64,000 nucleotides of DNA from a virus (taxonomy: Duplodnaviria; Caudoviricetes), in the IMG/VR virus record IMGVR_UViG_3300032269_000703, positions 1 to 64,000 of that record; one strand, given 5' to 3'. Below, one piece after another: positions 25,846 to 42,101 of the stretch (positions are counted from its first letter, which is position 1; each line of letters begins with the position of its first letter). Under the pieces are notes generated by a model that was given only the letters and a program-made list of their open reading frames with translations, did not search any database and was not told where the DNA came from. A program made the position numbers and the translations under genes.

Positions 25846-26349
25846 ATGAGCAAAAATGCAAATTTTAAACATGGGTCGCAAACGCTTGTTACACCTACAG
25901 AGCTAAAAAAGCTCGCTAAGTCGTTGCTAGATCCTGAGCACGAAGAGTTTGGTGAGCCAGGCAGTAAGTATCAGGACAGTAACCACCTATACTGGCAGAA
26001 TAGCACTAGGTGGGGTGCTGCCGGTGAGTGTGAGAACACCTCTAGATGGATACACCCGTATCTACCACAGGGCTCTCAGATAGTCAATATGGACAACTCT
26101 AAAGAAGATTCTTGGGTTGATGAGGACGGACAGAGAAGAACTGCCTCAATAGGCAACCACTACGTAACTGTTGTTCCTACTACAGAAGGTCCACACGTAG
26201 TAGACTTTACTCATAGACAGTTTCATAGCACCGCAGAATTTCCTATAGTACAACATATTAACGATTTTATGAAGAGAGCGTCTATGAAAGGCTACATTTT
26301 AGACCAAGAGCAGCTTTCTCCTACACTTAAAGAGAACTTAGGCGAATAA
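25846..26349 (+). CDS. Papain/transglutaminase-like Cys-His-Asp enzyme
   Basis: AAGECENTS...GNHYVTVV...VVDFTHRQF; leader MSKNANF. Confidence 0.6.
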   Translation: MSKNANFKHGSQTLVTPTELKKLAKSLLDPEHEEFGEPGSKYQDSNHLYWQNSTRWGAAGECENTSRWIHPYLPQGSQIVNMDNSKEDSWVDEDGQRRTASIGNHYVTVVPTTEGPHVVDFTHRQFHSTAEFPIVQHINDFMKRASMKGYILDQEQLSPTLKENLGE

Positions 26350-26759
26350 TGGATATACCTAGACAGTTTCAACACCTATTTTTTCATGTAAGCCCTAGAA
26401 GTAACCGCGAAAGCATAGAATCTAAGGGTCTACAGGCTAATGACGCCTATAATGACCAAACAGATACTTCTAATGGTATTGGCGTGTTTGTTTCTCATGA
26501 ACCTGATACATCTTTTGGCGATGACATTTATGGCATTGAAAACCCTCCTACAGGTAGAAAAGCCACAATTTCATTCATGGGAAGAACTCGTGAGTATGAT
26601 GAAGGCAAACATGACCTAGAAGATGCTCTTGATACTGAGGGTGTGTTTATACCCCATGATGTTCCTACCAGTGATTTTAAGCGAATAGGTCACGTATTCA
26701 TGAATAATGGACACCCAGAGATCCACTGGCATAAAGAAGAAGAGTGTCCTAATGGGTAG
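26349..26759 (+). CDS. ADP-ribosyltransferase-like protein (His-type)
   Basis: FFHVSPRSNRESIESKGL...GVFVS...FGDDIY; leader MDIPRQF. Confidence 0.6.
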   Translation: MDIPRQFQHLFFHVSPRSNRESIESKGLQANDAYNDQTDTSNGIGVFVSHEPDTSFGDDIYGIENPPTGRKATISFMGRTREYDEGKHDLEDALDTEGVFIPHDVPTSDFKRIGHVFMNNGHPEIHWHKEEECPNG

Positions 26760-27159
26760 AACTAATGGAGAGTTTCAAAATGGAACTGGAAAAGTCATGG
26801 TTGGATACCATGTGTCGTCTAATAGTAATAGAGATAGTATAGAAAAAACCGGATTGGTATCTAGCTGGGTAGGCAATGATCGTAGGGCTAAAGCTACTAA
26901 AGGTGTATTTTTTAGTACAGATAAAGAGTACTTGGATGATTTTGGCGGGGTTAAAAGTGACATTTGGAAAGTAACAGTTCCTATTGCCGGAATAGAAGAA
27001 GATTCTCATAAAGAAAATGCCTTTTACTCTAAAGATGATATACCACGTAGAAATGTTGAACGGGTAGGTCATTTTACAAAAGCTCCTGAATCAGACAATA
27101 AATTTGCTCCTTATTTAGAAATACATTGGCATAAAGAGGAGGACTGCCCTAATGAGTAA
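26752..27159 (+). CDS. ADP-ribosyltransferase-like protein, paralog of 26349
   Basis: GYHVSSNSNRDSIEKTGL...GVFFS...DIWKV; shared C-terminus GH...EIHWHKEE.CPN; leader MGRTNGEF. Confidence 0.6.
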   Translation: MGRTNGEFQNGTGKVMVGYHVSSNSNRDSIEKTGLVSSWVGNDRRAKATKGVFFSTDKEYLDDFGGVKSDIWKVTVPIAGIEEDSHKENAFYSKDDIPRRNVERVGHFTKAPESDNKFAPYLEIHWHKEEDCPNE

Positions 27160-27616
27160 TGAAGAAGACGAGTTTGACTATAGTTCAGCTATTACAAACC
27201 CTGAATACTATAAGCATGAAGATGATGGACCACAGGTACCAATGACAGGTCGTGTGGCTAGATTGCATAACATAACCTATGTACCTATGTCTGACGATGA
27301 GATTATAAATCATGAAAATGAAAATTTTAGTGAGCTAGACCCTGAAACCTGGGAATATCCTAATGAAAAAGAAAAGTTATTAGATAGAAATACGCCTTTG
27401 TTTAGCAAACAATCACATTTTGGCACACAGGGCATTAGGCACTATATAGACAATCCGGATGTACTTGCTGATCGTTACACTGATTATCCTACACCAGTAG
27501 TGTACACAGGTAAAGATGGTAAGATGTGGATACACAATGGGCATCACAGGATTATATCTTCTCGCCTACGTGGAGAACAATCTATCAAAGTAATTGACCG
27601 TGGAGTAAGAGCCTAA
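27152..27616 (+). CDS. ParB/Sulfiredoxin-like domain protein
   Basis: PVVYTGKDGKMWIHNGHHRIISSRLRGEQSIKV. Confidence 0.7.
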   Translation: MSNEEDEFDYSSAITNPEYYKHEDDGPQVPMTGRVARLHNITYVPMSDDEIINHENENFSELDPETWEYPNEKEKLLDRNTPLFSKQSHFGTQGIRHYIDNPDVLADRYTDYPTPVVYTGKDGKMWIHNGHHRIISSRLRGEQSIKVIDRGVRA

Positions 27617-28335
27617 TGGAGCTAGGTAGACAATTTAAACAACCACACCAGATGTCGCCTGATGAGTTTGCGGCACATCCTGCTGCTATCTTTCACGGCA
27701 CTTATTTGCCTGATGAAGATGTTATGGACGTGACTAATAGGCGTGGGTACCCTTCTTCTGGAGATAATTACTATGAGAACGGCAAGCCTATAGATGTAGT
27801 GCCAAAAATGCATTTAGGTACTTTTCAAGCTGCATTAGATGCTGTAATTCAAAATAGGAATAGTTATAGCGATAAAGCGACTATTCACACATATTGGCAA
27901 ACTCCTAAAGTGTCAGGTGCTACAGGTAATCTGCGTCTATCTAACTTTTTTAATGTAGATAAAGGTCCTTCTGAAGAAGACGTCAATAACCCAGAGAATG
28001 TGGCGCACTTTGTTCCAGGTGCACATTACTACGAGAATCAAAATGAAGGCGAAATAGGTGATCCTTCTTTTGCAACTGACACTCCTCACAAGTATTTGAC
28101 ATCACAAGCAGATTATGTTAAAGCAGCCTTAGATCGTGGTGTACCTGAATCTGAGATACACCCAAGAACATTAAAGCTATATAAAGCGGGTACTCTAGGA
28201 AAAATGACTATGCCAGCAAGAGTAGCTGACTACATGACTAAATATCACAATAAGCTAGGACCTTACACTAATGCAGGTCCTACATGGGATTACCTAAACT
28301 CTGAAGAAGAAGCGCCTAAAAGATCTGAAGAATAG
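27616..28335 (+). CDS. ADP-ribosyltransferase-like protein (polyvalent-protein type)
   Basis: IFHGT...MHLGTFQAA...YENQNEG; leader MELGRQF. Confidence 0.55.
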   Translation: MELGRQFKQPHQMSPDEFAAHPAAIFHGTYLPDEDVMDVTNRRGYPSSGDNYYENGKPIDVVPKMHLGTFQAALDAVIQNRNSYSDKATIHTYWQTPKVSGATGNLRLSNFFNVDKGPSEEDVNNPENVAHFVPGAHYYENQNEGEIGDPSFATDTPHKYLTSQADYVKAALDRGVPESEIHPRTLKLYKAGTLGKMTMPARVADYMTKYHNKLGPYTNAGPTWDYLNSEEEAPKRSEE

Positions 28336-28388
28336 ACATAAAACGCCAACGTAGGTAAGTATACTAGTACTTAGACGTAAGGATGTAC

Positions 28389-28895
28389 ATGACAGAATTA
28401 GGCGGGCAATTTAACTGCCCAGATTGTGGAAAGCCACAATATTCAGAAAATGGTTTTGAACCACACGACCACAGTGATACTTGCCCTACTTGTGGCGACT
28501 CTAAGGCAGATGGTCATTGGCACACCGGAATGAAGATTACTCTAGATCCTAGCGACCTTGATTTTTACAAAAAAGTAAATGAGATGGGTAAACTCCAGGG
28601 TCAACTAGATAATATCGATGCCACTAGAGAAGTAGACCTAACTAACAAAGCAGACCTTATAGACCACTTAGGATCTGACAATGGGCACGGTTTTTCTCCT
28701 TACGCAGACTGGTGCCACACATATGATGGCGAAGGTCTACGTACTACTTCTAAATGTAACGAAGAGATGGATCATGAGATGACCCTTACTCAGCTACAGA
28801 GTGTTCACCAGGAGCTTCATGAAAAGTATGGTGAAGATTATCCACACGAAAACACTGGTGACTGGCGTTCCGGCACTCACAGGCACTTGGAGTAA
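28389..28895 (+). CDS. Zinc-ribbon / His-rich protein
   Basis: Leader MTELGGQF then CPDC...H..CPTC...H. Confidence 0.55.
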   Translation: MTELGGQFNCPDCGKPQYSENGFEPHDHSDTCPTCGDSKADGHWHTGMKITLDPSDLDFYKKVNEMGKLQGQLDNIDATREVDLTNKADLIDHLGSDNGHGFSPYADWCHTYDGEGLRTTSKCNEEMDHEMTLTQLQSVHQELHEKYGEDYPHENTGDWRSGTHRHLE

Positions 28896-28898
28896 CCA

Positions 28899-29261
28899 AT
28901 GGGAAGAAGTAAAGCAAGCTTTAACGCTGCTGTTCCTTTGCATGATTTGACACAAGGATTTGGTCCAGATGTGTACGATAATCTAGATAAGCACGTTGTA
29001 AGTTCTGTTCTTAAAGATATTATTATTAGATCTAGAAATAAGCCGTCTAAACTTTCAAGGCTGCATATACTCGTCCCAACTGGTAGCCGCGGGGTGAACC
29101 AAGGAGACATAGGATTTTTAGATCGTGAAGATGCTGCACGAGAAGGAAGAGCTACTATGCCAGATGGTTTTAGACTAACAACTAGGAACCTACCTGCTAA
29201 ATATCTGTTTACGACTGGCGATCTTAGCAGATGGACTTGGAACCCAGGAAAGACTGAATAA
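28899..29261 (+). CDS. Degenerate ART-like domain protein
   Basis: LVP...GVNQGDI...LPAKYLFTTGDLSRW resembles an ART-fold module of polyvalent proteins; leader MGRSKASF. Confidence 0.4.
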   Translation: MGRSKASFNAAVPLHDLTQGFGPDVYDNLDKHVVSSVLKDIIIRSRNKPSKLSRLHILVPTGSRGVNQGDIGFLDREDAAREGRATMPDGFRLTTRNLPAKYLFTTGDLSRWTWNPGKTE

Positions 29262-29716
29262 TGACTGAACAAGGATCCCAATTTACATGTCCACAATGTG
29301 GTACGCCGCAGTTTACTGCAGAGTTTGGTTTTGAACGCCATTATCATGAACCTAATGATGTAAAAGACCCATGTGTTTTTTGTGGTGAAAGTACTGCACC
29401 TGCTAAAGGAGCTAATTTAGGTAATTTAGACCTAGGTGAACTTTTTAAAACAAATTCCTTAATAAATTCTAAGTTTGTAAATAGACTTCCGGGAACTTGG
29501 CAAGATCCAAATGACCCAAAGAAAACAATAGAAGGTTATGCGTGTGCTGACTGTATGAGTTCTGATTGTAAAACATGTGGTAAGCCAGTTCGTTTAGATG
29601 AAGAAGTTGTAGATAAAAATGGAGAGTGGCACCACCATGGATGTTTAAACCCAAAAGACGCAGATGAATATTATCAAGACTGTGAATGCGATGATTGTGA
29701 AAAGTGGCGTAAATGA
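29261..29716 (+). CDS. Multi-zinc-finger protein, N-terminus paralogous to 28389
   Basis: Leader MTEQGSQF then CPQC, CVFC, CADC, CKTC...HHGC. Confidence 0.55.
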   Translation: MTEQGSQFTCPQCGTPQFTAEFGFERHYHEPNDVKDPCVFCGESTAPAKGANLGNLDLGELFKTNSLINSKFVNRLPGTWQDPNDPKKTIEGYACADCMSSDCKTCGKPVRLDEEVVDKNGEWHHHGCLNPKDADEYYQDCECDDCEKWRK

Positions 29717-30327
29717 CAAGCTTAAGCCCAATGTTTGATGATGATTATTTAAAGAATCCAGATGACTACGTAACACTCTACCGTGGTCGTGAGCACTATT
29801 GGAGCTGGGAGCTGCCTAAGACACAAGAAGACCTAAAAGGTCTAGGAATGCATTGGACAACAGACCCACGTATTGCTGCTCATTTTGGTTCTGGTTGGAA
29901 CGATATGGATAACGATGAGCCTAACTCTAAAGGAAAAACAACAAGAACTGCTGGTGGTCACGTTGTTACAGCTAGAGTACACAAAAGCGGCATTATTGAG
30001 CGCGGAACTCCTGAATGGAATTCTTTTGCCAAACGTCACGCTATTGCAGGATTTGGAGATGAAGACCCTACAACTGAATCAAGTAATTTTGAAAAAGAAG
30101 TAACTATACGTCCAGGAACTCCACTTTATGTAACTAATGTTGTGCCTGTTAGAGAACTTGGATTAGAAGCTTCTCCTGCTTTAAGACAAGTAACTGGAGC
30201 AAAACGCAATACGCCTGTGTATGGTATTAAAGGTAAACTTAAAGGTAAAAAATGGGGACCAACATTAGTAGACAAGGCAGCTGTGGATAAAGGCGGATAT
30301 GTCAAAAAAGGTAAGGGAACTGCATAA
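29713..30327 (+). CDS. ADP-ribosyltransferase (R-S/T-ExE type, Alt/Mod-like chemistry)
   Basis: VTLYRG...LGMHWTTDPRIAAHF...FEKEVTI; leader MTSLSPMF. Confidence 0.65.
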   Translation: MTSLSPMFDDDYLKNPDDYVTLYRGREHYWSWELPKTQEDLKGLGMHWTTDPRIAAHFGSGWNDMDNDEPNSKGKTTRTAGGHVVTARVHKSGIIERGTPEWNSFAKRHAIAGFGDEDPTTESSNFEKEVTIRPGTPLYVTNVVPVRELGLEASPALRQVTGAKRNTPVYGIKGKLKGKKWGPTLVDKAAVDKGGYVKKGKGTA

Positions 30328-30405
30328 TGCCAAAATTAGGCGCAATTAGCAGCCGAAAACGATATTAGATAGATATAATAACCTTATTAAACAAAAGGAT
30401 TGACT

Positions 30406-30627
30406 ATGAAGAATAAACCTGGAAATGGAAAGCAAGTACTTAAAACTGCTTTAACAGGAATGGGCACAGGTGCTATCATTGGAAGCACTATACACCCAGA
30501 CAATCTTCTCTATGTAGCAGGTAGCTCTCTTCTTGGCGGTATGGCTGCTACTGGTGTTGCAGGTCTAAAAGGCGAAGGTAAGCGTAATAAGAGTTTCAAT
30601 GAAGGCAAAGACAACTCTAGACGATAA
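30406..30627 (+). CDS. Small glycine-zipper membrane protein
   Basis: GxxxG-rich hydrophobic helices; C-terminal KRNKSF. Confidence 0.45.
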   Translation: MKNKPGNGKQVLKTALTGMGTGAIIGSTIHPDNLLYVAGSSLLGGMAATGVAGLKGEGKRNKSFNEGKDNSRR

Positions 30628-31151
30628 TGAGCCTACACCACATTGAAGCATTAGCTACTTTAGCTAATATGCACTATATTGCTAGCCAAATACACGCGCG
30701 CACGCCTGTGAACGACGAAACAGGTAAAAGCATTGTTGATTACATGGATGATGCCACTAAGCACCTTAATCAGTCTCTACTTCATTCAAACACCGGTAAT
30801 GCACAGAGTTCTTTATTTTCTTTAAGACAAACATACCAGCACACACAGGGTGTTATGAATATGCTTTTGGAAGCAGGAGAGCACCAGATCAACGAAGCTG
30901 AAAACGGCAGAATGCTTGGAAGCGATCTTATTAAGAATATGACTGATATGAACGCATTTGTTGACCACCATGCCGCATTTTTAGACAAAGGCAAAGCGAT
31001 TGTTGCTGATCAGCAAGAAAAAGGTTTAGCCCAAAAAGATTTACAAAACAACGCTAAAGATGTCATTGAGGGTATTGCAGATGACAACAACCTTTTTCTT
31101 CCAGGCAGCTGGGTAAACCGTGGCAATAACAAAGCCCCGAATGGAGAGTAA
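30627..31151 (+). CDS. Helical His-rich hypothetical protein
   Basis: 174 aa, coupled. Confidence 0.5.
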   Translation: MSLHHIEALATLANMHYIASQIHARTPVNDETGKSIVDYMDDATKHLNQSLLHSNTGNAQSSLFSLRQTYQHTQGVMNMLLEAGEHQINEAENGRMLGSDLIKNMTDMNAFVDHHAAFLDKGKAIVADQQEKGLAQKDLQNNAKDVIEGIADDNNLFLPGSWVNRGNNKAPNGE

Positions 31152-31588
31152 TGTCACACAGTGATAATCCTTATGGCTGGGAGTCTAATGATGACTATAG
31201 CCAGCCACAGAATATAGAGCCTGTATATCAGCAACTTTTGGGTCATCTAGCTAATGCACATAAAATTGCTGTTCAATATCCTAAATGGAGATCGCTTGGT
31301 AGACATATTCCTCGTATTGAAGCAGCTAGAGAACTTGTTAAAGAAGCGGCTATACACTCCGCATCTTTTTTGACAGGTAGAGCCGTAGGATCTTTACATG
31401 AAGCTATGGATGCAGTAACCCCTGTAATTAGCGATTCTTATAAAGATACAATGCCTCATGACTATGACGGTGCTGTAGATCCTAGAGACCCTGCTATTAA
31501 ATTCCATAATCACATGTCTGATTTCTTTTTTAAAGCACACAAAGAAACTGGTGGTTCATTACCTGGAGAAGAAGGTTGGGATAACTAA
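31151..31588 (+). CDS. Helical His-rich hypothetical protein
   Basis: 145 aa, coupled. Confidence 0.5.
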   Translation: MSHSDNPYGWESNDDYSQPQNIEPVYQQLLGHLANAHKIAVQYPKWRSLGRHIPRIEAARELVKEAAIHSASFLTGRAVGSLHEAMDAVTPVISDSYKDTMPHDYDGAVDPRDPAIKFHNHMSDFFFKAHKETGGSLPGEEGWDN

Positions 31589-32301
31589 TGGCTTTTAAAC
31601 CTATTAAGATTTGGGCTGGTAGAAACAGCGTTCCTATGAGAGAAGATCTAGAAGCTTCTAATAGTGATGCCGTAGAAGCTATACGTTCCGATATTAAACA
31701 AAAGTATGGCGAAACATCTCTAAATTGGGGTTTAAAGATTCCTGAAGCTGATGCAGAGTTTCGTGCTCGTTATAATGAGCTTCCAAGTACTTATGACGCC
31801 GCTAACTTTAAACTGTTTCATAATTCTGAGCACAAGTTTGAGCCTGGTGATATTGTAAAGCCAACTATGTCAATATACCATGCTGCTGGTGAACAAGGTA
31901 TGGATGATGAAGAACGCAAAGGTATGAGCAAAAAATACCATGCTTGGGCTGCAGCAACTCCTGATTACCAAAAAACACGTGGTAGATACACTTATGAGGT
32001 AGAGCCTATTACAAAACACAGTTGGGTTCAAGAAGATCCAGTAGGTTTTGAAAATGGCGAATTTGCTGCTCCAGAGGGTTACAGGGTCAAACAAGTAGTT
32101 TGGGATAAAGAAAAAGATTCTTGCCCTACTTGTGAAGGTAATGGAGTGCATCTTAGGGTATACCAAAACGCGTATCCATATCATCCAGAATGCACTGATT
32201 GTTTTGGAACAGGGTTGTCTACATCAAAAATTGTTGGATTACAAAAAGCCGGTCATAAGCTAGATGAAATAAAAGCATTTAAAGCTCCGATAGATTATTA
32301 A
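31588..32301 (+). CDS. Arr-like ADP-ribosyltransferase with DnaJ-type zinc finger
   Basis: LFHNSEHKFEPGDIVKP...AWAAA...YTYEVEP...DP...EF; CPTCEGNG and CTDCFGTG. Confidence 0.55.
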   Translation: MAFKPIKIWAGRNSVPMREDLEASNSDAVEAIRSDIKQKYGETSLNWGLKIPEADAEFRARYNELPSTYDAANFKLFHNSEHKFEPGDIVKPTMSIYHAAGEQGMDDEERKGMSKKYHAWAAATPDYQKTRGRYTYEVEPITKHSWVQEDPVGFENGEFAAPEGYRVKQVVWDKEKDSCPTCEGNGVHLRVYQNAYPYHPECTDCFGTGLSTSKIVGLQKAGHKLDEIKAFKAPIDY

Positions 32302-32304
32302 ATT

Positions 32305-32604
32305 ATGGGTAAAAGAAAAAAGCCAGTACAAAGTGAAGCAGCTGAATTAGCTGAACTACAAGAAGCTGCTAGCCAAGAGCACAATAGAAGATGTTCAGAT
32401 ATCTTTAATGAGTACCCTGAAGATGAACACGATACTCTTCGCAATGATTTAATGGATCAAGCTGCTCATGATATTAATGAAGAATTTATTAAGCAGTATC
32501 CTGTATGGGCTAAAGCTTATGGACCTAAACCTCCTAAATCAATACAGTTTAAAAAAATCCAAGGAAATATTGGATTAGATATTGGAGCTAAAAAGTATGA
32601 CTAA
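32305..32604 (+). CDS. Hypothetical protein
   Basis: 99 aa. Confidence 0.5.
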   Translation: MGKRKKPVQSEAAELAELQEAASQEHNRRCSDIFNEYPEDEHDTLRNDLMDQAAHDINEEFIKQYPVWAKAYGPKPPKSIQFKKIQGNIGLDIGAKKYD

Positions 32605-32947
32605 TCCAGAAGAATTTGATTTTAGTCATATTAATGAGACTAACGCTCCTAGAACAATGGGAGAGCTACACGAATTAACTGAAGGTAGACCTCTTAGTAG
32701 AGCACAATGGAATAACATTATGGAGTTAGGTCTTAAACGCACCGCTAATGAAGAAGCAAATCCACCTAAGCCTGTTCCTGAAGGAATGGCTAATCCTAAT
32801 CTAGGTGATCTAGAGTCTGAAGTTGGTGCTCAAAAAGTTGGCTGCAATAACTGTGGCGAACTAATGTCTCGTGATCAGCATAAAGAAGAAGGCGGATTAT
32901 GCTTTGATTGCTGGAAAACTCAACAGGAAGAGGATAGACATGAGTAA
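32597..32947 (+). CDS. Hypothetical protein with C-terminal zinc ribbon
   Basis: Start MTNPEEFDFS; CNNC...CFDC. Confidence 0.5.
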   Translation: MTNPEEFDFSHINETNAPRTMGELHELTEGRPLSRAQWNNIMELGLKRTANEEANPPKPVPEGMANPNLGDLESEVGAQKVGCNNCGELMSRDQHKEEGGLCFDCWKTQQEEDRHE

Positions 32948-33245
32948 ATCACCTGCATGGCAAAGAGCAGAAGGAAAGAACCCTAAAGGCGGTCTTAATG
33001 CCAAGGGTAGAGCTTCTGCTAAAAAAGAGGGGCATAACCTCAAAGCACCTGTAAAAAAGGGCGACAATCCTCGTAGAGCCTCTTTCTTGGCTAGAATGGC
33101 TGGCAACCCAGGTCCAGAGCGTAAACCCAATGGTGAGCCTACTAGACTGCTTTTAAGCCTAGAAGCATGGGGTGCCTCATCTAAAGCTGACGCTAGACAA
33201 AAAGCTGCTGCTATTCGTAAGCGTAATGAAGGAAAGAAGAAGTAA
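32940..33245 (+). CDS. Conserved basic phage protein (DUF6321-like)
   Basis: MSKSPAWQRAEGKNPKGGLNAKGRAS...RRASFLARM. Confidence 0.65.
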   Translation: MSKSPAWQRAEGKNPKGGLNAKGRASAKKEGHNLKAPVKKGDNPRRASFLARMAGNPGPERKPNGEPTRLLLSLEAWGASSKADARQKAAAIRKRNEGKKK

Positions 33246-33406: not shown

Positions 33407-33762
33407 TGGATGAACAAAATCTAAACGATCAGCAGTTTGGTCCTTGGAAAATGACTCCTACCATGAAGGCTGTTCATGAGTATATGAAAACTAGACATGT
33501 TGGTGTAGAAAACAGAGGCGGTATGTGGGACATTGCAGCAGCTACTGTTACAAACCATAAAAAACAGTATTTAACTAATGCTAAACATGAAGCCCACTTT
33601 GAGGCATTAAATCGTCTAATTGATAATGGAATTGTAAAAAAGAACTCTGGAGACTACCATAATGGAGATGATATCGATACTGCGTGGATTCCTGTAGAAG
33701 GTGAAAAAACTGTAAAAGAACTGTACATGGAAGAACTTGAACATAAATTTGGCAGTCAGTAA
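33406..33762 (+). CDS. Possible winged-helix protein
   Basis: MWDIAAA...EALNRLIDNGIVKK; leader NLNDQQF. Confidence 0.45.
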   Translation: MDEQNLNDQQFGPWKMTPTMKAVHEYMKTRHVGVENRGGMWDIAAATVTNHKKQYLTNAKHEAHFEALNRLIDNGIVKKNSGDYHNGDDIDTAWIPVEGEKTVKELYMEELEHKFGSQ

Positions 33763-34172
33763 TGGGTAGAAATACTGCAGCATTTCAAGGTGGTCAAGGA
33801 CTATCTATTGTTCATGATAAAGGACAAAAAGTATCTTTACACAAAGTTGGAGAAGGTGAGGTATCTAGTATAGATTACCATTTACCAGAACCAAATAGGG
33901 TATACATTTCTATGATGAATACTCCATGGGAGTATGAAGGTAATGGGTATTCTTCTTACCTAGTAAACCATCTGTATAACTATTACCCAAACCACACAAT
34001 AGATTTTGGCGATATTGTCCACCCAGCGGCAGAACACATTATGGAAAAGATGATGTCACAACATGGCAGAACAGTATACAGCACTTCGTCTAAAGACTGG
34101 ACTTGCAAAGAGTGCGGAGAAGAAAATTTTTCTAGAGATATGTTACGTGAGCATGAAGAAGAGAATCACTAA
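33762..34172 (+). CDS. GNAT-fold acetyltransferase-like protein with C2H2 finger
   Basis: ISMMNTPWEYEGNGYSSYLV (motif A-like); CKEC...H...H; leader MGRNTAAF. Confidence 0.6.
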   Translation: MGRNTAAFQGGQGLSIVHDKGQKVSLHKVGEGEVSSIDYHLPEPNRVYISMMNTPWEYEGNGYSSYLVNHLYNYYPNHTIDFGDIVHPAAEHIMEKMMSQHGRTVYSTSSKDWTCKECGEENFSRDMLREHEEENH

Positions 34173-34531
34173 TGGGTAGAAATAATGCAGACTTCCATGG
34201 TTACACTCTAGAGTTTGAGCACGCTGATACTTCTCCTGTAGAAGACTGTGATCACCACAGAGTAGATGCTTTTGATAAAGATGATGAGCATGTAGGCAGT
34301 TTAATATGGTTCACGCATGACGCGGGCGCGCGTACCCCAGGCGCAATAGACGTAGATGTAGACCCTGAACACCAGCGTAAAGGTATAGCTACTGCTATGT
34401 ACAAGTTTGCTTTACAAAAAGCTGCTGAACATAACATTATTAAGCCAGATCTACTTAGGTCTTCGTATGGACCTGAAGGGTATAGATGGGCTAGATCTTT
34501 AGGATTACCTAAGAAGTTTGGTGAAAGATAG
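34172..34531 (+). CDS. GNAT acetyltransferase
   Basis: VDVDPEHQRKGIATAMY acetyl-CoA binding motif; leader MGRNNADF. Confidence 0.8.
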   Translation: MGRNNADFHGYTLEFEHADTSPVEDCDHHRVDAFDKDDEHVGSLIWFTHDAGARTPGAIDVDVDPEHQRKGIATAMYKFALQKAAEHNIIKPDLLRSSYGPEGYRWARSLGLPKKFGER

Positions 34532-34540: not shown

Positions 34541-34645
34541 TGCTATAATCTATGTAGGCACGCCAATTGGGTGCCATAAACAATAGTCTGCCTTATGGGG
34601 ACTTTGCCGTATGGCAGACGCTTATCTACGTCTAAGGAGTAGAAA
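34541..34645 (+). promoter_or_regulatory. Extended -10 promoter and structured 5' UTR of hsp20
   Basis: TGcTATAAT; hairpins GGCACgCC/GGGTGCC and GTCTGCC/GGCAGAC; AAGGAG flanked by TCTAC/GTAGA. Confidence 0.55.
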
Positions 34646-35167
34646 ATGCACATTAACGTACCAGATCCATGGGATAAACACAAAAACCCATATATTAACC
34701 CACATGATCCGTGGGATAAGAAAAAAGAGTGGGAAAAACCTGCTCCACCAAAGATTATTACAATTAATGATCTATTTCCTCGTTTAGACCGCCTTTCTAT
34801 TGGTTGGTCTCCACTTCTTGATCAACTCAAGGAGATTACTAACAACAAGCCAAGTTACCCTCCATATGACATTGTTCAGATGGATGAAGAGACAAACCTA
34901 CTCAACGTAGCTGTTGCTGGGTTTACTAAGAAGGAAGTTACTGTTACTGTAAAAGATTCAGCAATTACCATCGAAGGTAAGCAGAAAGAAAAGCAACGTG
35001 GCGAAGTTGTTTACCAGGGCATTGCTACACGGGACTTTAAGTTGTCGCTAGCAATTGCTGAATACTGGGAAGTTACTAATGCTCTAATGGAAAACGGTAT
35101 GTTGACTATTCAATTCAACAAGATCCTTCCTGAAGAGCTGAAGCCAAAGGTAATTGACATTAACTAG
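34646..35167 (+). CDS. Small heat-shock protein (Hsp20/IbpA family)
   Basis: SYPPYDIV...VAVAGF...YQGIATRDF...MENGMLTI...PEELKPKVIDI. Confidence 0.93.
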   Translation: MHINVPDPWDKHKNPYINPHDPWDKKKEWEKPAPPKIITINDLFPRLDRLSIGWSPLLDQLKEITNNKPSYPPYDIVQMDEETNLLNVAVAGFTKKEVTVTVKDSAITIEGKQKEKQRGEVVYQGIATRDFKLSLAIAEYWEVTNALMENGMLTIQFNKILPEELKPKVIDIN

Positions 35168-35182
35168 TTTTTAATGTAGACT
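35154..35182 (+). promoter_or_regulatory. Sigma70/SigA promoter driving the ncRNA cluster
   Basis: TTGACA (35154) - 17 bp - TAGACT (35177). Confidence 0.7.
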
Positions 35183-35189
35183 AGGTATA

Positions 35190-35219
35190 CCACCTGAGCA
35201 CGTGGACGTAAAACTGCTC
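35190..35219 (+). ncRNA. Compact H-type pseudoknot at the predicted transcript 5' end
   Basis: CCAC/GTGG stem; loop GAGCA pairs with downstream TGCTC across an AAAA linker. Confidence 0.45.
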
Positions 35220-35222
35220 TTA

Positions 35223-35305
35223 GGGCTAGAAATGGTGTCGATTGCAGAACAAAGCCGCATGTCGGAGTCTGTAAGACCGCAGTTCAATTCTGCGCTGGTC
35301 CACGC
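35223..35305 (+). ncRNA. tmRNA tRNA-like domain only (mini-tmRNA, no mRNA-like domain)
   Basis: Acceptor GGGCTAG/CTGGTCC with G3.U wobble and discriminator A; unpaired D-loop AAATGGTGTCGA; stem TTGCAGA/TCTGTAA; GAC linker; T-arm CGCAG-TTCAATT-CTGCG. Confidence 0.7.
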
Positions 35306-35361
35306 TTGTAGACAAAGGAGCGTTTTAGCGGTCTACCCGTCCTAGGCAACGGAATCTCCAA

Positions 35362-35435
35362 GGACTGGCGTAGCCATGGGCTACGAGTCGATTCGGTAGG
35401 TAGTAGTCGGTAGTGCAAATCTACACAGTCCACGC
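35362..35435 (+). ncRNA. Atypical tRNA-like RNA
   Basis: GGACTG/CAGTCC acceptor; CGTAGCC/GGCTACG arm; CGATT/AGTCG arm with 11-nt loop; GTAG-TGCAAAT-CTAC T-arm; 3' ACGC. Confidence 0.5.
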
Positions 35436-35448
35436 ATGGAAGGAAAAT

Positions 35449-35622
35449 ATGCCAACGTATCAATACACGTGTAAAGAGTGTGACTCTACAATTAGTCACC
35501 TCATACCTATTAATGAACCATTAATAACTCCTAAATGCCTGTCCTGTCAACAGGAAATGGAAAGGATATTTGCCGTTCCTAGTATTACATTTCGTGGTGG
35601 TGGTTGGGGCAGTAGCCGTTGA
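35449..35622 (+). CDS. FmdB-family zinc-ribbon protein
   Basis: MPTYQYTCKEC...CLSC..EMERIF..PSITFRGGGW. Confidence 0.85.
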   Translation: MPTYQYTCKECDSTISHLIPINEPLITPKCLSCQQEMERIFAVPSITFRGGGWGSSR

Positions 35623-36062
35623 AGACATGCACTTTATGCGGTATTGAGAAATCTTACGATCAATACACTAAAAAAAGCCGTAATAGGGATGGGTACATGG
35701 CTATGTGCCGTGAATGCTCTCTACCTAGGCGTCGTAAACAATATGAAGAAAATCCGGACTATCAAAGGAACGCAGTGAAGGTTCGTAAAGAAAATAATCG
35801 TGATCGCATAACACAGTACAAGATAGATAACCCTTGTGCTGATTGTGGTAAATTTTATCCTTCTTATGTGATGGATCTAGATCACGTACGTGGAGATAAG
35901 TTTAAAGGAGTATCTCAGCTAGTTTCACATAGCTGGGACGTAATAGAAACAGAAATTGCTAAGTGTGACTTAGTATGCGCTAATTGCCATCGTGAACGTA
36001 CTTTTAAACGTTTAGGCACAACACAACTCGACTACTACCATGAGGACTACCAACTTGATTAA
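35619..36062 (+). CDS. HNH endonuclease
   Basis: CTLC...CREC; CADCG...DLDHV...EIAKCDLVCANCHRERT. Confidence 0.85.
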   Translation: MKTCTLCGIEKSYDQYTKKSRNRDGYMAMCRECSLPRRRKQYEENPDYQRNAVKVRKENNRDRITQYKIDNPCADCGKFYPSYVMDLDHVRGDKFKGVSQLVSHSWDVIETEIAKCDLVCANCHRERTFKRLGTTQLDYYHEDYQLD

Positions 36063-36576
36063 GAACCCTATTGAAGTAACCCTAACTGAAGAAGAAGTAG
36101 CTGAAGGACTAGACTTTGTCCGTAAAGTACGTGAGAACAAAGAAAAGCATGGCGTACGTGACATGATGTTTGATCTTAAAAACACTTCTGAAGGAATCAA
36201 CATTATTGGTCATTTAGGAGAAGTAGCTGCTTCTAACTACCTTGGATTAAAAGTAAACCGTGATATTTACGTACATGGCGATGGTGGGCTAGATTTAGAG
36301 CTAGATGGCACCACAATCCAGGTAAAAACAAGTAAACTACCTAAGATGATATTTAACCATCATCTAGGGTTTTCTACTGATATCGCAGTACTAGCCCAGT
36401 ATATTGGTGAAGATAACCGTCATGCTGAAAAAGATCCTAGGTTCCTTATTTGGGGTTGGATCAATAAAGAGCAGTTTATGGAAAAGTACTACCCTTATGA
36501 TTTTGGCTACGGAACACGTCTTGTAGTTGAGTCTATTCAATTAAACCCTATGGATAAGTTGGTCAAAGTAAAATGA
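36040..36576 (+). CDS. PD-(D/E)XK nuclease-like protein
   Basis: GHLGEVA...GDGGLDL...IQVKTS...WGWI. Confidence 0.55.
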   Translation: MRTTNLIKNPIEVTLTEEEVAEGLDFVRKVRENKEKHGVRDMMFDLKNTSEGINIIGHLGEVAASNYLGLKVNRDIYVHGDGGLDLELDGTTIQVKTSKLPKMIFNHHLGFSTDIAVLAQYIGEDNRHAEKDPRFLIWGWINKEQFMEKYYPYDFGYGTRLVVESIQLNPMDKLVKVK

Positions 36577-36709
36577 TGTTTTTATGGTTAATACTGTCTG
36601 GAATAGGCATTACAAGTATTATTATTATAGGTTTGTTCTCTTTAATTATTTTTATTGAGGCACTTGCAAACCATTCTGATTTAGATTCGGATTTTTGGAA
36701 AGAGTAGCT

Positions 36710-36895
36710 ATGGGTTACATTAATGAGCTTCGTACTGGACTTGCTGGCGGTCGTGGCAATCTAAGCCTAAAAATCTCTACTCGCTATGATGGTCTTGGCA
36801 TTAACGCGCAAAAGTTTGGCGGAAAGCAGTTTACTGTAGGTGAAACAAACTACGCTAGCAGTAACAAAGGAATTGCTAAACCAGGCAGCTTTTAA
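36710..36895 (+). CDS. Small Gly-rich hypothetical protein
   Basis: Start MGYINELR; coupled to the next gene. Confidence 0.45.
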   Translation: MGYINELRTGLAGGRGNLSLKISTRYDGLGINAQKFGGKQFTVGETNYASSNKGIAKPGSF

Positions 36896-37029
36896 TGCTT
36901 AGCACACAGTTTTCTAGAGCTACCGGCATGTATGGCGGTCCTAGAGGTACTTACGGTACTTATCTTGTAGGTCAAAATGTAGATCTAGCAAGTTTTAAAA
37001 CCGATAGAGAAAGACAGTCAGGCGAATGA
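36895..37029 (+). CDS. Small protein with LSxQF leader (44 aa, not in ORF track)
   Basis: MLSTQFSRATGMYGGPRG...; TAATG-coupled. Confidence 0.5.
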   Translation: MLSTQFSRATGMYGGPRGTYGTYLVGQNVDLASFKTDRERQSGE

Positions 37030-37105
37030 TCCCAGAAGAAGAAGAATTTGATTTTGACTTTGTTATTTTTGATGAAGACGAAGAGGATGAGGATGAGGAT
37101 GAACA

Positions 37106-37360
37106 ATGAGTTCCTCTACTCTAGGTGTTCAATTTCAGGGCATTAGTGGTCTTTCTAATTACTGGACTAATATTCCATCTATGATTATGGGCATTAATGG
37201 CGGTGCTGCATTAAGCACTACAACTGGAGTTCCACTTGGCACACCTTCTGAAGAAATTTTTGCTAAAGTAGGTGGAGGAGTTAAGAAAGCTGATGATGTC
37301 AGTGATCAACTACCAGCATCTACATCAGGTATGTTACAGGGCGGCACAGCCGCTAGTTAG
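37106..37360 (+). CDS. Small protein with LGxQF leader
   Basis: MSSSTLGVQFQG. Confidence 0.5.
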   Translation: MSSSTLGVQFQGISGLSNYWTNIPSMIMGINGGAALSTTTGVPLGTPSEEIFAKVGGGVKKADDVSDQLPASTSGMLQGGTAAS

Positions 37361-37368
37361 GAAACACT

Positions 37369-37563
37369 ATGTTTGCAGCGTTACTTCCACTAGTTGCACG
37401 AGTTGGTGCAGGACTTGGTGCTAGAGCAGCAGTAGGTATGGGTGCCGCTGAAGGCGGTATTGGTGCTCGTGTTGGAGCAAACCTAGGTGAACGAGCCGCA
37501 GTATCTGCTGCTAGACACCTTAGCGGTCAATTTAACAATGAACGCAATAATCAATATAATTAA
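37369..37563 (+). CDS. Small Gly/Ala-rich protein with C-terminal LSGQF
   Basis: 64 aa, AGGA RBS. Confidence 0.5.
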   Translation: MFAALLPLVARVGAGLGARAAVGMGAAEGGIGARVGANLGERAAVSAARHLSGQFNNERNNQYN

Positions 37564-37624
37564 TTTTTATAATTCCGCACTTATCTAGACCACAATATGT
37601 ACCCTTTTTTAGATAAGGTAAATA

Positions 37625-37891
37625 ATGAAACTTTTTGGAAATGTCCTTCTTAGAATTTTGGCGACATTCGTTGCGTCCGCTCTTGGCGTTATTGGTGCTG
37701 GGTCCCTTGGCGGTGTTGCTCCTGCTACTGCCGCCTTTGTTGGTGGTATCCTGGCTGTTGCAAAAGTTATAGAACGCCTATCTCTTGCCTTCCTAGAAGA
37801 TGGCAAGTTGTCTAATGCTGAGATTAACGCAGCGTTCCAGCAGTCTGTTCAACTAAAGAATGTCAAAGAACCAAAGGCTCCTAAGAACTAA
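37625..37891 (+). CDS. Holin-like membrane protein
   Basis: Two hydrophobic helices and a charged C-terminus; lies near the M23 peptidase. Confidence 0.55.
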   Translation: MKLFGNVLLRILATFVASALGVIGAGSLGGVAPATAAFVGGILAVAKVIERLSLAFLEDGKLSNAEINAAFQQSVQLKNVKEPKAPKN

Positions 37892-39441
37892 TGAGATTGT
37901 TGCGTAAACTCGCAACGCTACTCGTCACACTACCTCTTGCTCTTACACCTTTACTACTTCCAGCAATAGCGTCTGCAGACACAGTATCCGGATTGAATGT
38001 CGAAGTTTATACTTATGACCCCTCAAGCACGCCTGACCGTAAACCTTATCAACTTTGTGAAGGTGCTTGGACTCACGCTGACAACATTGACTCTGATTTT
38101 GATGCTTTAGGTTCTGTTGCGGGATGTAGACCTGATTGGGTTTTAGTCCATTACACAGGCTTTGTAACTTTTCCAAAGTCTGGTACTTTTGCGTTTATGG
38201 CTCCTGCTGATGATGGGTTCTGGCTATCTCTTGATGGAACTTCAATCATTACTAATGACTGGGTTCTTAAAGGTCGATGGGGGCAAGTTTATCCTGACGT
38301 GCAGATTGAGGGCGGGCATACTTACGCTCTAGATGCTTGGTTCTACGAGTATGGTGGCGGTGCTAGTGCTACTTTAATGTACTCTCCTGATAATGGAAAT
38401 AACTGGAATGTTGTACCTTCTGAATACTATACAACTGATGGTTCTGCACCGGTAATTGTTGCCCCGCCTTCTTTGAGCCAGCCAGTTGGTTTGAACGGCA
38501 CTGCTGATGGAACTAACGTTGATCTAGTTTGGGGAGCAGTAGTCGAAGACACTCCTATTGAGCATTATGCAGTTATGTGGACTTATGCTGGAGCAGATGG
38601 CTGGGGCATAAGCGCTGCTGACCAAAGCATTACTATTGGCGGTTTGCCGGAAGATACAGACGTGACATTCTGGGTCCGTTCTGATAATGACACACTTCAC
38701 GTTTACTCCCAGTATTCTGACCCAATTATTGTACATACTGGCTTTGACCCAATAGTTATTCCTGTACCACAGCCTACAGAGCCACCTGTTGTAGTACCTC
38801 CTGTAATTCCAGAGCCGCCAGTTGACCCTAAGCCACCAGTTATTCCAGACCCACCTGTAGTGCCTGATCCTCCTATAGTTGTGCCTCCAGTTATTCCTGA
38901 TCCACCAGTGGTTGTTCCGCCTGTGGTAGTCCCAGAACCTCCAGTTGTAGTGCCAGACCCACCAGTTGTTCCAGAGCCTAAGCCAGAACCACAGCCAAAG
39001 CCACAAGGTTCTCCAGAGATTCCTGCCGTTATTGAAAACCTAATGCAGGTAGACCTACAGGCAGTAGACCCAACTGAACTTACTCCAGAACAAGCTACCC
39101 AACTTGTAGAAGCGGCTTTGGTGGTATTTGAAACAGCCACAGAAGGCTCTCCAGAATACCAGCAAGCGTTGGACGCGCTTTACTTGGCAGCCGAGCAAGA
39201 TGACATTGTGGTTGACCCAGGCATTGCTAATATTCCTGGTGTTGGTCAAGCCGCTGTTGCTATTGCTAATGTATTGAATGCCATTGGTAACGTAGGTGCG
39301 GACATCTCACCTAAAGCCCGTAAAAAGGCTCAGACGCTTGTTGTAACCACTCTTGTTGTTGGGCAAATTGCTCAGACAGCAGCCCTAGCTACCGCATCTT
39401 CAGGCGGTTCATCTAACCGAACACTTAGGAGAAAACAATGA
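37891..39441 (+). CDS. Secreted/membrane protein: PA14 domain, FN3 domain, Pro-Val repeat linker
   Basis: Signal peptide; ADDGFWLSLDG...WFYEYGGGA (PA14); P..L...VDLVW...ITIGGLPEDT..FWVRS (FN3); (P[DE]PPVVV)n. Confidence 0.75.
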   Translation: MRLLRKLATLLVTLPLALTPLLLPAIASADTVSGLNVEVYTYDPSSTPDRKPYQLCEGAWTHADNIDSDFDALGSVAGCRPDWVLVHYTGFVTFPKSGTFAFMAPADDGFWLSLDGTSIITNDWVLKGRWGQVYPDVQIEGGHTYALDAWFYEYGGGASATLMYSPDNGNNWNVVPSEYYTTDGSAPVIVAPPSLSQPVGLNGTADGTNVDLVWGAVVEDTPIEHYAVMWTYAGADGWGISAADQSITIGGLPEDTDVTFWVRSDNDTLHVYSQYSDPIIVHTGFDPIVIPVPQPTEPPVVVPPVIPEPPVDPKPPVIPDPPVVPDPPIVVPPVIPDPPVVVPPVVVPEPPVVVPDPPVVPEPKPEPQPKPQGSPEIPAVIENLMQVDLQAVDPTELTPEQATQLVEAALVVFETATEGSPEYQQALDALYLAAEQDDIVVDPGIANIPGVGQAAVAIANVLNAIGNVGADISPKARKKAQTLVVTTLVVGQIAQTAALATASSGGSSNRTLRRKQ

Positions 39442-39626
39442 AGAAAGTAAAGAAATTCCTAGTAGCCTTACTTAGAGACCTACTTGACCAGGCTTGGACC
39501 CTTTTAGGTCTTGCTCTTGGTTGGGTTCTGCTTGAAGGATCTGCTAGAGATATTGTAGGTAAGTTGATTGGTGTTACCCTACTTATTTGGATTCTTACGT
39601 TTCCACTGCGTAATCGTGACGAATAG
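39438..39626 (+). CDS. Small two-TM membrane protein
   Basis: Two hydrophobic segments. Confidence 0.55.
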   Translation: MKKVKKFLVALLRDLLDQAWTLLGLALGWVLLEGSARDIVGKLIGVTLLIWILTFPLRNRDE

Positions 39627-39660
39627 TAGATAATAGTAATATCAACCCGAAAGGACAATA

Positions 39661-40119
39661 ATGTCTGAAATTGTATACCATGAACCATTTGATAAAAAGC
39701 TTAGAGGCGATGAGCTTGGTAATCTAGCTCCATACCGTAATGGTCGACCACACCGTGGACAAGACTGGCACCCAAAGGAAAAGTCACCAATTCACGCTAT
39801 TTGTGATGGAACTGTTGGTCTAGTTGCTTGGACTGATGTTTTAGGACACATTATTGTTCACTCTTCAAAAGATGCTAAGCACTGGGTTCTTTACGCTCAC
39901 CTTGCTGAAAAACCTACCCTTAAAAAAGGCGACAAGGTTGAAGGTGGAAAGACTGTTCTAGGACTAGTTGGTGGCGGTAAGAACACACCATCAGGGTCTG
40001 CATCTACTGGTGCTCACCTACACATGACCGTTGCTACTATGGGCAAAGACTTCTCAGGTGTAGAAGCACACATGCTTCCATTTGAGCGTCTAGTTGACCC
40101 ACTAACTCTATTTAAGTAA
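39661..40119 (+). CDS. M23 family peptidase (endolysin candidate)
   Basis: HRGQDW (HxxxD), YAHL and STGAHLH (HxH). Confidence 0.88.
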   Translation: MSEIVYHEPFDKKLRGDELGNLAPYRNGRPHRGQDWHPKEKSPIHAICDGTVGLVAWTDVLGHIIVHSSKDAKHWVLYAHLAEKPTLKKGDKVEGGKTVLGLVGGGKNTPSGSASTGAHLHMTVATMGKDFSGVEAHMLPFERLVDPLTLFK

Positions 40120-40313
40120 ATGATACAGAGAAAAGCCCTAACTGTTAATAACGGTGCTGCTCTTAAGCGCACTAAGCTATTTAACCAGTCTAGGGCTTTA
40201 TCTGTACCTAAGCAACAAAAACAAGAGACATCTGTGTTCGTACACGCGCGCGCAGGAAGACAAAACTCAGAGGGTTTTGGTGGCGGAAATAGAGTAGGAA
40301 AAAGGTAGTATAC

Positions 40314-40658
40314 ATGGATCAAGTTGTACTATATTGGGCTGCTGGTATAATTACAGTAGGAACTGCACTTAGTATGTTAGCTGTGGCTCTAAAACGCCTC
40401 TACAAGCGCGTACAGGGCTTTATGGAGAATTGGGATCAATTTCACAGAGATTGGTCTGGAGAGCCTGCAATGCCCGGTAGAAGTGCTGTACCTGGTGTTA
40501 TGGAGCGACTCAACCGGATTGATGGGGAATTAAAGCGTAATGGTGGTTCTTCTATGAAAGATGCAATAAATAGAGTTGAAAAGAAATTAGAGCAAATCGA
40601 TGCTAGACTTGATCAAGGTAACCAACGATTTGACGAAATCGAAATGAGAATTAAATGA
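40314..40658 (+). CDS. Membrane protein with coiled coil (lysis-associated, actinophage type)
   Basis: N-terminal TM; ELKRNGGSSMKDAINR motif. Confidence 0.6.
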   Translation: MDQVVLYWAAGIITVGTALSMLAVALKRLYKRVQGFMENWDQFHRDWSGEPAMPGRSAVPGVMERLNRIDGELKRNGGSSMKDAINRVEKKLEQIDARLDQGNQRFDEIEMRIK

Positions 40659-41164
40659 CTATTATGCCAAATAAAAAAGGCGGTAGAGTACCACAGCCGG
40701 GTGTAAATAACCCTATTGGTAGTGCAGGTGACTTTAAAATTGCTGTAAATAGCGGTGCTACTGGTTCTATTTTAGGTGCACTAGGTACTAGACTAAATGC
40801 ACGAGGAATGAGCTGGAATGCTGCTCGTGCTGCATTAGAGGTTGCTAAAGTTGAAGCTCAAAGAGATATGACTGTAAGATCTATGGAGCTACAGGCAGCA
40901 GCTGAGGCTCAGCAAAGAAAACATGAAGCAGACATTAAAACTACTCGTATGAACAATACACACGAGCTTAAAAAGATTACTCTTACAGCAGAACAAGCGC
41001 GTCTAAACCAGCTACAGTCTACAAATAATGTTCATGGTGTTCTAGACAGACTAAGAGATGACTTCCCTGGTGCCAACCTTGAGTTTGAAACTGAACGTGG
41101 TGAAAGGGTTAACATAACTCGTCCAAAGGGGGCGTCCTCTGAAGATTCAGAGGATGGGAGTTAA
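40655..41164 (+). CDS. Hypothetical coiled-coil protein
   Basis: 169 aa. Confidence 0.5.
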   Translation: MTIMPNKKGGRVPQPGVNNPIGSAGDFKIAVNSGATGSILGALGTRLNARGMSWNAARAALEVAKVEAQRDMTVRSMELQAAAEAQQRKHEADIKTTRMNNTHELKKITLTAEQARLNQLQSTNNVHGVLDRLRDDFPGANLEFETERGERVNITRPKGASSEDSEDGS

Positions 41165-42101
41165 ACCTAAATCTAGTAGAAATGCTGCGTTTAGTCAGGG
41201 TTCTGGTGGTGGAAGAACTACACGCGTAGTTGAAGCACCAAGTTATGATGAGCCTGAAGAAGATGCTGATGAGTATGAAGATGAAGATGAACATGAAGAT
41301 GAACAAGAGTCATCAACACCTCAAACATCAACACCTACTGTAACTACTACACCTGCTACTACAGCTATCCCTACTTCTACTCGTACTGCAACACCTGTGT
41401 CTTCTGTAGAAAAGTCTGAGAAAGAAGCAAAGGAAGCTAAAGATCGAGATGACAGAGTAGCTCAATCTATTATTGAAAATGAACCAGATAAACTAGACTT
41501 CTTTAAAAATAGAATTGGAAGTTCTTGTAAATCTTGTGGAGAAAAAATCCAAAGTTTACATGACAGTTATAGAAAACATGATATTGAGTCTAATGGTCTT
41601 TGTAGCCATGCTTTTGATGCAATTGAAGCGTGGGATGGTAGTGACGTCTCTTCTATTACTAAAAAAACACTAGGCATTTCTTTTGATAAAAATAGTGGTG
41701 GCAATGAACAAAACGTGAGTGCTGATGACCCTACTACATGGACGCCTGAAATGAAAAAGGCTCACAAAGCCCATTACGAAGAGTTTGCACCACATTTTAA
41801 AGATTTAGATACAGAAAGAAACATTACTCATGGGTTTGCACCTAAAGACATAGAGAATTGGTCTTCTGCTGAAACTAAATGGGGGCAAGCTGAATTTAAA
41901 GGGGCTCCTCCTGGTGCTGATAAACTAAGGTATGCTAATACAGAAAAAGAAGTAAAGTATTCTTTAAATAGAGTTGGCAAACCATGCTCCTTCTGTGGAG
42001 AGGACATTCCTTCAGTAGAAGAGTTGGATGAACATCTAATAAATAAAAATGGTTGGTGTGGCACCGCAAGCTCAGCTATGAGATTTGCAAGTGATAATTA
42101 G
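41154..42101 (+). CDS. Hypothetical protein with acidic/Thr-rich linker and duplicated zinc module
   Basis: RNAAF near the N-terminus; two NRxG..CxxCGE.I...H...NG.C modules. Confidence 0.55.
   Translation: MGVKPKSSRNAAFSQGSGGGRTTRVVEAPSYDEPEEDADEYEDEDEHEDEQESSTPQTSTPTVTTTPATTAIPTSTRTATPVSSVEKSEKEAKEAKDRDDRVAQSIIENEPDKLDFFKNRIGSSCKSCGEKIQSLHDSYRKHDIESNGLCSHAFDAIEAWDGSDVSSITKKTLGISFDKNSGGNEQNVSADDPTTWTPEMKKAHKAHYEEFAPHFKDLDTERNITHGFAPKDIENWSSAETKWGQAEFKGAPPGADKLRYANTEKEVKYSLNRVGKPCSFCGEDIPSVEELDEHLINKNGWCGTASSAMRFASDN

Follow-up and report, generated by a model that had tools for sequence, protein, structure and literature searches.

The 64,000-nucleotide stretch of phage DNA analyzed here (the window; positions 1 to 64,000 of IMG/VR record IMGVR_UViG_3300032269_000703) contains an array of small genes, several of which start with variants of one and the same ten-residue peptide, hereafter the tag. 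Its consensus, M-[GTA]-R-N-N-A-D-F-[HQN]-G at residues 1-10, is also found in related viral and metagenomic contigs. Sequence comparisons indicate that the tag is a portable N-terminal module, not a domain, and that selection acts on the peptide and not only on the RNA around the start site. By analogy with known systems, the tag could be an address label that docks proteins in the assembling phage head for co-injection, a reading to which we assign a probability of about one in three. Neither the phage lineage nor the motif has been described before.

All peptides that the original prediction had assigned to this leader class are present at the coordinates claimed for them. The DNA it had described as common to three gene starts, the 11-mer AATGGGTAGAA, occurs exactly three times (26751, 33761, 34171), compared to 0.03 occurrences expected, and is found at no other gene start of the genome. 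Motif enrichment was assessed with a position matrix trained on 24 tags from other phages, with which all open reading frames (ORFs) of this genome were scanned. The best score per shuffled proteome served as null (median 5.9 bits, 95th percentile 11.1). Three genes, here named by their first position, exceeded this 95th percentile: 34172 (36.9 bits), 33762 (21.2) and 26752 (15.9), each with the match at residue 2. These three belong to the leader class as predicted, and 28899 and 25846 are looser variants of it. The MGRSKASF of 28899 scored -2.4 bits, which is not significant on the external matrix, but the motif is nonetheless retained in its orthologues. The MSKNANF of 25846 is a variant one residue shorter, which recurs in other loci as MSKNNEF, MGRNNEF and MSRNEEF; its orthologue in the related locus L002 starts with M-TNSGNFKHG. 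The two remaining candidates did not hold up on their own, since neither SSRNAAFSQG at residues 8-17 of 41154 (-3.1 bits) nor KRNKSFNEG at the C-terminus of 30400-30627 (2.0 bits) was significant. The L002 orthologue of 41154 reads RRRTGAFSQGS. The C-terminus of 30400-30627, KRNKSFNEGKDNS, resembles the N-terminus MARKEDFDKGKDNS of the tagged gene L024:7557-7772 and may, to judge from this resemblance, be a tag remnant fused in frame to an upstream ORF after loss of the body.

The tag was then traced in larger collections. DNA encoding NNADFHG was found 27 times in 2.9 million viral contigs, and 19 of these 27 matches are exactly codons 4-10 behind M-[GTAP]-[RA], in most cases a few codons downstream of an in-frame stop. 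With a stricter pattern, about 28 of 46 metagenome matches were truly N-terminal. Five larger viral records contain one to three matches each, on the coding strand, compared to none for the reversed control pattern, and the arrays of related loci comprise 3-9 tagged genes in a row. In cellular genomes (185,579 species), the tag was at the start of no gene; the 15 matches obtained were either internal or chance-like, and none of them is a host or prophage copy.

The proteins behind the tag are largely unrelated to each other. When residues 1-12 were removed from 45 tagged ORFs, BLASTP still separated the bodies into at least 20 clusters. The bodies that were identified include GNAT acetyltransferases (PF00583), a HAD_PNKP phosphatase (E = 6e-22), an Arr-like ADP-ribosyltransferase (ART; Arr-ms, E = 8e-5) and a Tpt1/KptA-like ART fold, next to zinc-ribbon proteins and proteins of unknown function; a match to ddrB-ParB is weak (E = 0.022). 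Pfam and PHROG searches gave no match for most tagged bodies. The tagged GNAT is the commonest family and was found in 12 of the 15 related sources that were compared for the neighbor genes of tag arrays. The array genes are separate ORFs of 60-240 residues, each with its own start and stop, and the tagged proteins have a median length of 119 residues and a median isoelectric point (pI) of 6.1. By inspection, the 24 training tags are polar with a single Arg and lack the hydrophobic core and the twin Arg of Sec and Tat signal peptides.

Three tagged proteins of the window were assigned to a fold or family. The 34172 protein matches PF00583 with 33.5 bits (E = 5.4e-8), above the curated cut-off of 20.7. 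For 33762, an Atlas search returned GNAT clusters in both the feature (0.95) and the structure comparison (TM 0.65), among them GNATs fused to the polyvalent-protein domain LPD11. This backs its earlier annotation as a GNAT, although in an hhalign comparison with the 34172 family the alignment is confined to residues 1-20, that is, to the tag. The ART label given to 26752 stands as a prediction of the fold and does not extend beyond it. The AlphaFold2 (AF2) model has a mean pLDDT of 79.7, with a confident body and residues 1-12 below 50, and the top Foldseek matches all belong to the ART superfamily (Tpt1/KptA, Rhs ART toxins, pertussis toxin S1), at E-values of at least 1.6e-3 and TM 0.4-0.5; no Pfam or PHROG family matched.

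Leaders had been proposed to be swappable, and this view is borne out by bodies that occur with different tags, with a degenerate tag or with none. The ART-like proteins 26349 and 26752 are indeed paralogues with different leaders (BLASTP E = 2e-15, aligned from residues 12 and 19), and relatives of this body start with MGTPRQLRE, MGANNEDL, MARNNVDFN or MTRNNADFQGG. The 29713 protein is similar to that of L006:4893-5330, which starts with MGRNNEFQAG (BLASTP E = 9e-8), and the alignment opens downstream of both tags; in L059, MTRNNADFQGG is followed by a body start similar to that of 29713. The L002 orthologue of 27152 is untagged and starts with MSELLGDD. The related phages thus contain homologues in which one body is paired with alternative leaders. 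The other leader class, (L/I)G-x-Q-F, also recurs, both in the window (8233-8664, 8764-9267, 27616, 28383, 29261 and 37106, all on the plus strand) and in related loci. Examples are MTEIGPQFEGV, MELNENQFEGV and MPLGKQFKN, and orthologous bodies change between both classes.

Selection on the peptide and on the DNA can be told apart by synonymous sites. In the 34172 GNAT family (16 members, mean identity 39%), M1, N4, A6, F8 and G10 are invariant, and six of six homologues retrieved by a query without the tag carry it, so that the leader of 34172 is not missing from its homologues. Codons were counted from 38 distinct tag DNAs. Phe8 is encoded 18 times by TTC and 19 times by TTT, Asn5 14 times by AAC and 15 times by AAT, Gly10 by all four codons and Arg3 by AGA, AGG, CGC and CGT. 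Conservation of the upstream DNA ends at the stop/start overlap, TAATG or ATGGGTAG. Because the tag is near-invariant at about 39% identity of the bodies while its codons vary synonymously, these data indicate that selection acts on the peptide. The translational-coupling context alone, which the original prediction had named as a competing explanation, does not suffice, since the codons of Phe8, Gly10 and Arg3 vary and the residues are kept. Some codons are over-used in the tag relative to the genome (AGA 79% vs 29%, AAT at codon 4 85% vs 51%, GCA 84% vs 33%, GAC 79% vs 38%). There may be an extra DNA- or RNA-level component, or the tags may share a recent common descent. At L005:255-1404, all three tags read MGANN, with Ala in place of Arg at residue 3. 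Because this variant is written with three different Ala codons (GCA, GCC, GCT), a single reader common to all tags of one genome would be its best explanation.

The leaders had also been suggested to serve as recombination microhomology for cassette shuffling. Blocks of DNA similarity to L001 and L002 (blastn) begin and end at gene boundaries, and cassettes are replaced and reordered between these loci. The segment 33409-34171 is swapped in L001 for a different tagged gene. A block containing the 3' end of 26349 also covers the tag of the gene that follows and ends at 26780, with different bodies downstream, and the homology blocks of 27152 start about ten codons inside the gene, at 27185 (vs L002) and 27180 (vs L001). 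The start of 26752 overlaps the stop of 26349-26759 by 8 nucleotides (ATGGGTAG, 26752-26759), so that …PNG* is followed by MGR…; this overlap is kept in L002 (5656-5663) despite a different downstream gene. Block boundaries at gene starts or just past the tag and the over-used codons are consistent with tag-mediated exchange, but selection for intact genes together with a selected similarity of the tags predicts the same pattern and fits equally well. The suggestion is therefore compatible with the data without being singled out by them.

As mentioned above, the window is part of a larger record, of which it represents the first 64 kb. This 93,035-bp viral record has direct terminal repeats and 41% G+C and is a complete 93-kb WhiB-encoding myovirus-like phage. 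Genes for the large terminase, the portal (49343-51073) and an HK97-type capsid protein (51991-53121) are present, and beyond the window a 666-residue ORF lies at the place held by the tail sheath gene in Streptomyces phage LuckySocke. In sequence identity, the capsid protein reaches about 60% with its counterparts in the Streptomyces phages LuckySocke (61%), Alone3 and BRock, but 41% with the one in Bacillus phage BCD7. The genome also encodes WhiB (E = 1.3e-20). Because the presence of such a gene is the rule by which freshwater actinophages have been assigned (PMC6802176), the host is probably actinobacterial and the phage an actinophage. The tag lineage as a whole probably consists of freshwater actinophages of about 90 kb. 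Metagenomes contain 1,543 homologues of the scaffold protein, some of them titled 'uncultured Caudovirales phage UFOVP', and this lineage is therefore common in the environment.

How could such a tag work? If it is an address label for capsid loading, one common partner would read all tags of a genome. The tagged proteins would dock on the scaffold, coat or portal of the assembling head and would be injected together with the DNA, to act on the host at once. The tag would stay on the protein and function uncleaved, because a recognizable head protease is lacking. In favor of this reading, the tagged proteins are small, the tag is predicted to be disordered in the model of the ART-fold protein, and the repertoire is similar to that of polyvalent proteins. 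The array also shares its strand with the lysis and head genes, which follow 2-12 kb downstream. As a side effect, the conserved 12-25 nucleotides at cassette 5' ends and the overlapping stop and start codons would provide short homology by which cassettes could be exchanged.

Three described systems served as models. In phage T4, diverse internal proteins start with the capsid-targeting sequence (CTS) MKTYQEFIAE, a tag of about ten residues (PMC8442874, PMC3012670). In phage P1, DarB, or a reporter, is directed into the head by the N-terminal 30 residues of DarB (PMC9024508). Polyvalent proteins, known from phages and conjugative elements, combine ART, RimI-like GNAT and ParB-like domains; they are predicted to act upon invasion and, in the case of phages, to be carried in the capsid (PMC5512222; Iyer, Burroughs, Anand, de Souza, Aravind 2017). 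The tag resembles the T4 CTS in being an N-terminal peptide of about ten residues on unrelated small proteins that are encoded at a variable locus and include host-modifying cargo. Both have an early basic residue and, near position 7-8, an acidic residue with Phe after it, but by inspection this acidic residue and Phe are all they have in common, and there is no real sequence similarity. Moreover, packaging is proven in T4, as for the packaged ART Alt, whereas for the proteins described here it is a proposal; the phage also differs from T4 in its HK97-type head with a separate scaffold and in its probable actinobacterial host. With P1 DarB it would share, by analogy, an N-terminal segment that sends a protein into the head together with the DNA. 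That segment, however, comprises about 30 residues of one very large protein and needs other Dar proteins, while the tag is a short motif on many small genes. The ART, GNAT and ParB-like repertoire of polyvalent proteins is found again, although the ParB-like part is only weakly matched here. Polyvalent proteins are single long fused polypeptides, in contrast to the separate small tagged genes of the array, in which no processing peptidase domain was found. In encapsulins, unrelated enzymes are docked inside an HK97-fold shell by short, flexible cargo-loading peptides at their termini. Unlike the tag, these peptides are usually C-terminal and have other motifs.

A number of observations weigh against capsid loading. 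The tag is absent from all recognizable structural proteins of this phage. The gp21 head protease of T4 removes the CTS, but in the complete genome no prohead protease of the S78, S77 or ClpP-like type was matched at E-values up to 0.1; the blank for S77 (the T4 gp21 family) is weak, since this model matched no control genome either. Because no head protease was detected, one of the steps that define the T4 system appears to be missing. No MuF protein was detectable in the complete genome. The gene between those for the portal and the capsid protein has no family match, and its LuckySocke counterpart is annotated as a scaffolding protein. With their median pI of 6.1, the tagged proteins are not basic, unlike the very basic internal proteins of T4. 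The array is preceded by a divergent intergenic region with only a weak sigma-70-like site and could be an early operon. No cultured tag-bearing relative was found in the phage collection, neither with the DNA of the array nor by tblastn with the tagged GNAT. In addition, a promoter and terminator scan of 24.8-42.2 kb gave counts at chance level, and a 9-mer search of upstream regions revealed no common promoter motif.

As for a docking site in the head, the scaffold protein (51193-51954, plus strand) ends with ...NNRGQGLFGN. This tail is near-invariant in 120 homologues, reads SNRGLFG in LuckySocke and is probably a coat-binding tail. By analogy, protease-less HK97-type lake phages might use an uncleaved ten-residue cargo-loading signal to dock swappable ART, GNAT and phosphatase effectors in the procapsid for co-injection, perhaps at the site of the scaffold tail NRGQGLFG, a tentative proposal that we consider unlikely. 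We also looked at whether the tag itself mimics NRGQGLFG. The likeness is loose (Arg, four residues, Phe, Gly) and has no matrix score, so mimicry is speculation; it does not strengthen the case for loading.

If the tag is not a packaging signal, it could mediate docking to a partner that is not part of the virion. Such a partner might be a host hub, for example the ribosome, RNA polymerase or a protease or chaperone, or else a chaperone or holdase of the phage, such as its Hsp20. A short disordered linear motif carried by macromolecule-modifying enzymes fits this explanation, and the genome-specific MGANN variant again suggests a single reader. The Hsp20 gene is the most consistent untagged neighbor of tag arrays (13 of 15 sources), and both Hsp20 and tags of this class are absent from the 91 of 114 kb examined of LuckySocke. 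However, all sources come from one phage lineage, and synteny may explain the co-occurrence. The motifs that small heat-shock proteins are known to bind are of the I-x-I/V type and differ from this tag, which counts against Hsp20 as the reader. Because no gene of a cellular genome starts with the tag, there is no sign that it copies a host signal. Docking outside the virion is a possible explanation, which we consider unlikely but rank second, after capsid loading.

It is improbable that the tag is an expression or stability module without any protein partner, in which an A-rich initiation region and the nascent peptide would influence re-initiation, early elongation, Met removal or half-life. 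Most tagged genes do overlap the preceding stop by TAATG or ATGGGTAG and have an unclear Shine-Dalgarno sequence, and some tag codons are over-used, as described above. At residue 2, only small amino acids occur (G, T, A, S, P), which would allow Met excision. But conservation extends to codons 8 and 10, Phe is never replaced, Arg is drawn from both codon families, and the tag is conserved far above the catalytic bodies. Furthermore, many genes of the same translationally coupled array are untagged or carry the other leader class.

Still less probable is that an enzyme of the array recognizes or modifies the tag, for example through N-terminal acetylation by the tagged RimI-like GNAT or ADP-ribosylation of Arg by one of the ARTs. 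Such an arrangement would resemble the shared leaders of peptide-maturation systems. G, T, A and S exposed after Met removal are typical substrates of N-terminal acetylation, and GNAT is the most frequent tagged family. In several tags, however, Arg3 is replaced by Ala, and in the genome G003 (89% complete) a tagged gene occurs without any GNAT body, which also weakens the idea of the tagged GNAT as the reader of the tag. In addition, the supposed writer is itself tagged, which fits a cargo role better.

Finally, the tag could be a historical by-product of cassettes that recombine at a short conserved 5' sequence and inherit a tag of little function; DNA homology blocks end at starts or right past the tag (26780, 27185, 33409, 34171) and the tags of one genome share codons (e.g., ACT AGA AAT AAT GCA in L006), but a neutral hitch-hiker should decay, whereas five of ten positions are invariant at 27-43% body identity and the synonymous variation points to long-term purifying selection on the peptide, so that we consider this highly improbable.

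The genes discussed above are compiled in Table 1. The 28899 protein weakly matches the PHROG family 'ParB C-terminal domain' (E = 6.5e-4), and family searches, including Pfam and PHROG, gave no result for the 25846 protein. The Hsp20 protein has an unusual Pro/Trp-rich N-terminal extension with a repeated DPWDK. Just 5' of the packaging genes lies 42114-44261 (plus strand), which encodes a protein of 715 residues without Pfam or PHROG family that contains, by eye, two alike internal segments (…W..L…QK..V..…HD…SFG). A third common N-terminal motif was noticed in two genes located close together, 4938-5192 and 5402-5824 (plus strand), which start with MSNVPDRSNDPKRKVPF and MSVPDRGNHPNRKATF.

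Table 1. Tagged genes, candidates and neighbors (positions within the window)
Feature	Position	Strand	Basis
First array gene, shorter variant MSKNANFKHG, Phe at residue 7	25846..26349	+	sequence
Paralogue of 26752, N-terminus MDIPRQFQH (other leader class)	26349..26759	+	BLASTP
ART-fold protein, nearest Tpt1/KptA, tag MGRTNGEFQNG	26752..27159	+	structure model and Foldseek
Protein with tag-like start MSNEEDEFDY	27152..27616	+	DNA homology to relatives starts past the tag
Protein of unknown function, loose tag MGRSKASFNAA	28899..29261	+	MGRSKASF kept in L002 and L016 orthologues
Protein with degenerate tag MTSLSPMFDD	29713..30327	+	same-body relatives canonically tagged
Small glycine-rich ORF with tag-like C-terminus KRNKSFNEGKDNS	30400..30627	+	sequence
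Divergent GNAT-fold protein, C-terminal zinc ribbon, tag MGRNTAAFQGG	33762..34172	+	Atlas search
GNAT acetyltransferase, canonical tag MGRNNADFHGY	34172..34531	+	tag DNA 34172-34204; PF00583
Hsp20/alpha-crystallin	34646-35167	+	PF00011, E = 5e-15; directly 3' of the last tagged gene
315-residue acidic, zinc-finger-like protein, displaced SSRNAAFSQG at residues 8-17; weak candidate	41154..42101	+	

If the tag indeed serves as an address label, a peptide of ten residues would be sufficient to direct any small protein to a single destination in an abundant group of uncultured lake phages. It would then mark, from sequence, proteins that are deployed together, here several ART-fold enzymes, GNATs, an RNA-repair-type phosphatase and many proteins of unknown function, and the question of injected effectors would become testable beyond the T4 and P1 models. 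Should capsid loading be correct, uncleaved loading would provide a very small packaging tag for engineering, that is, a natural, minimal and programmable form of protein delivery unlike the load-and-cut system of T4. Whatever the destination, the tag is a handle by which its reader could be found by pull-down.

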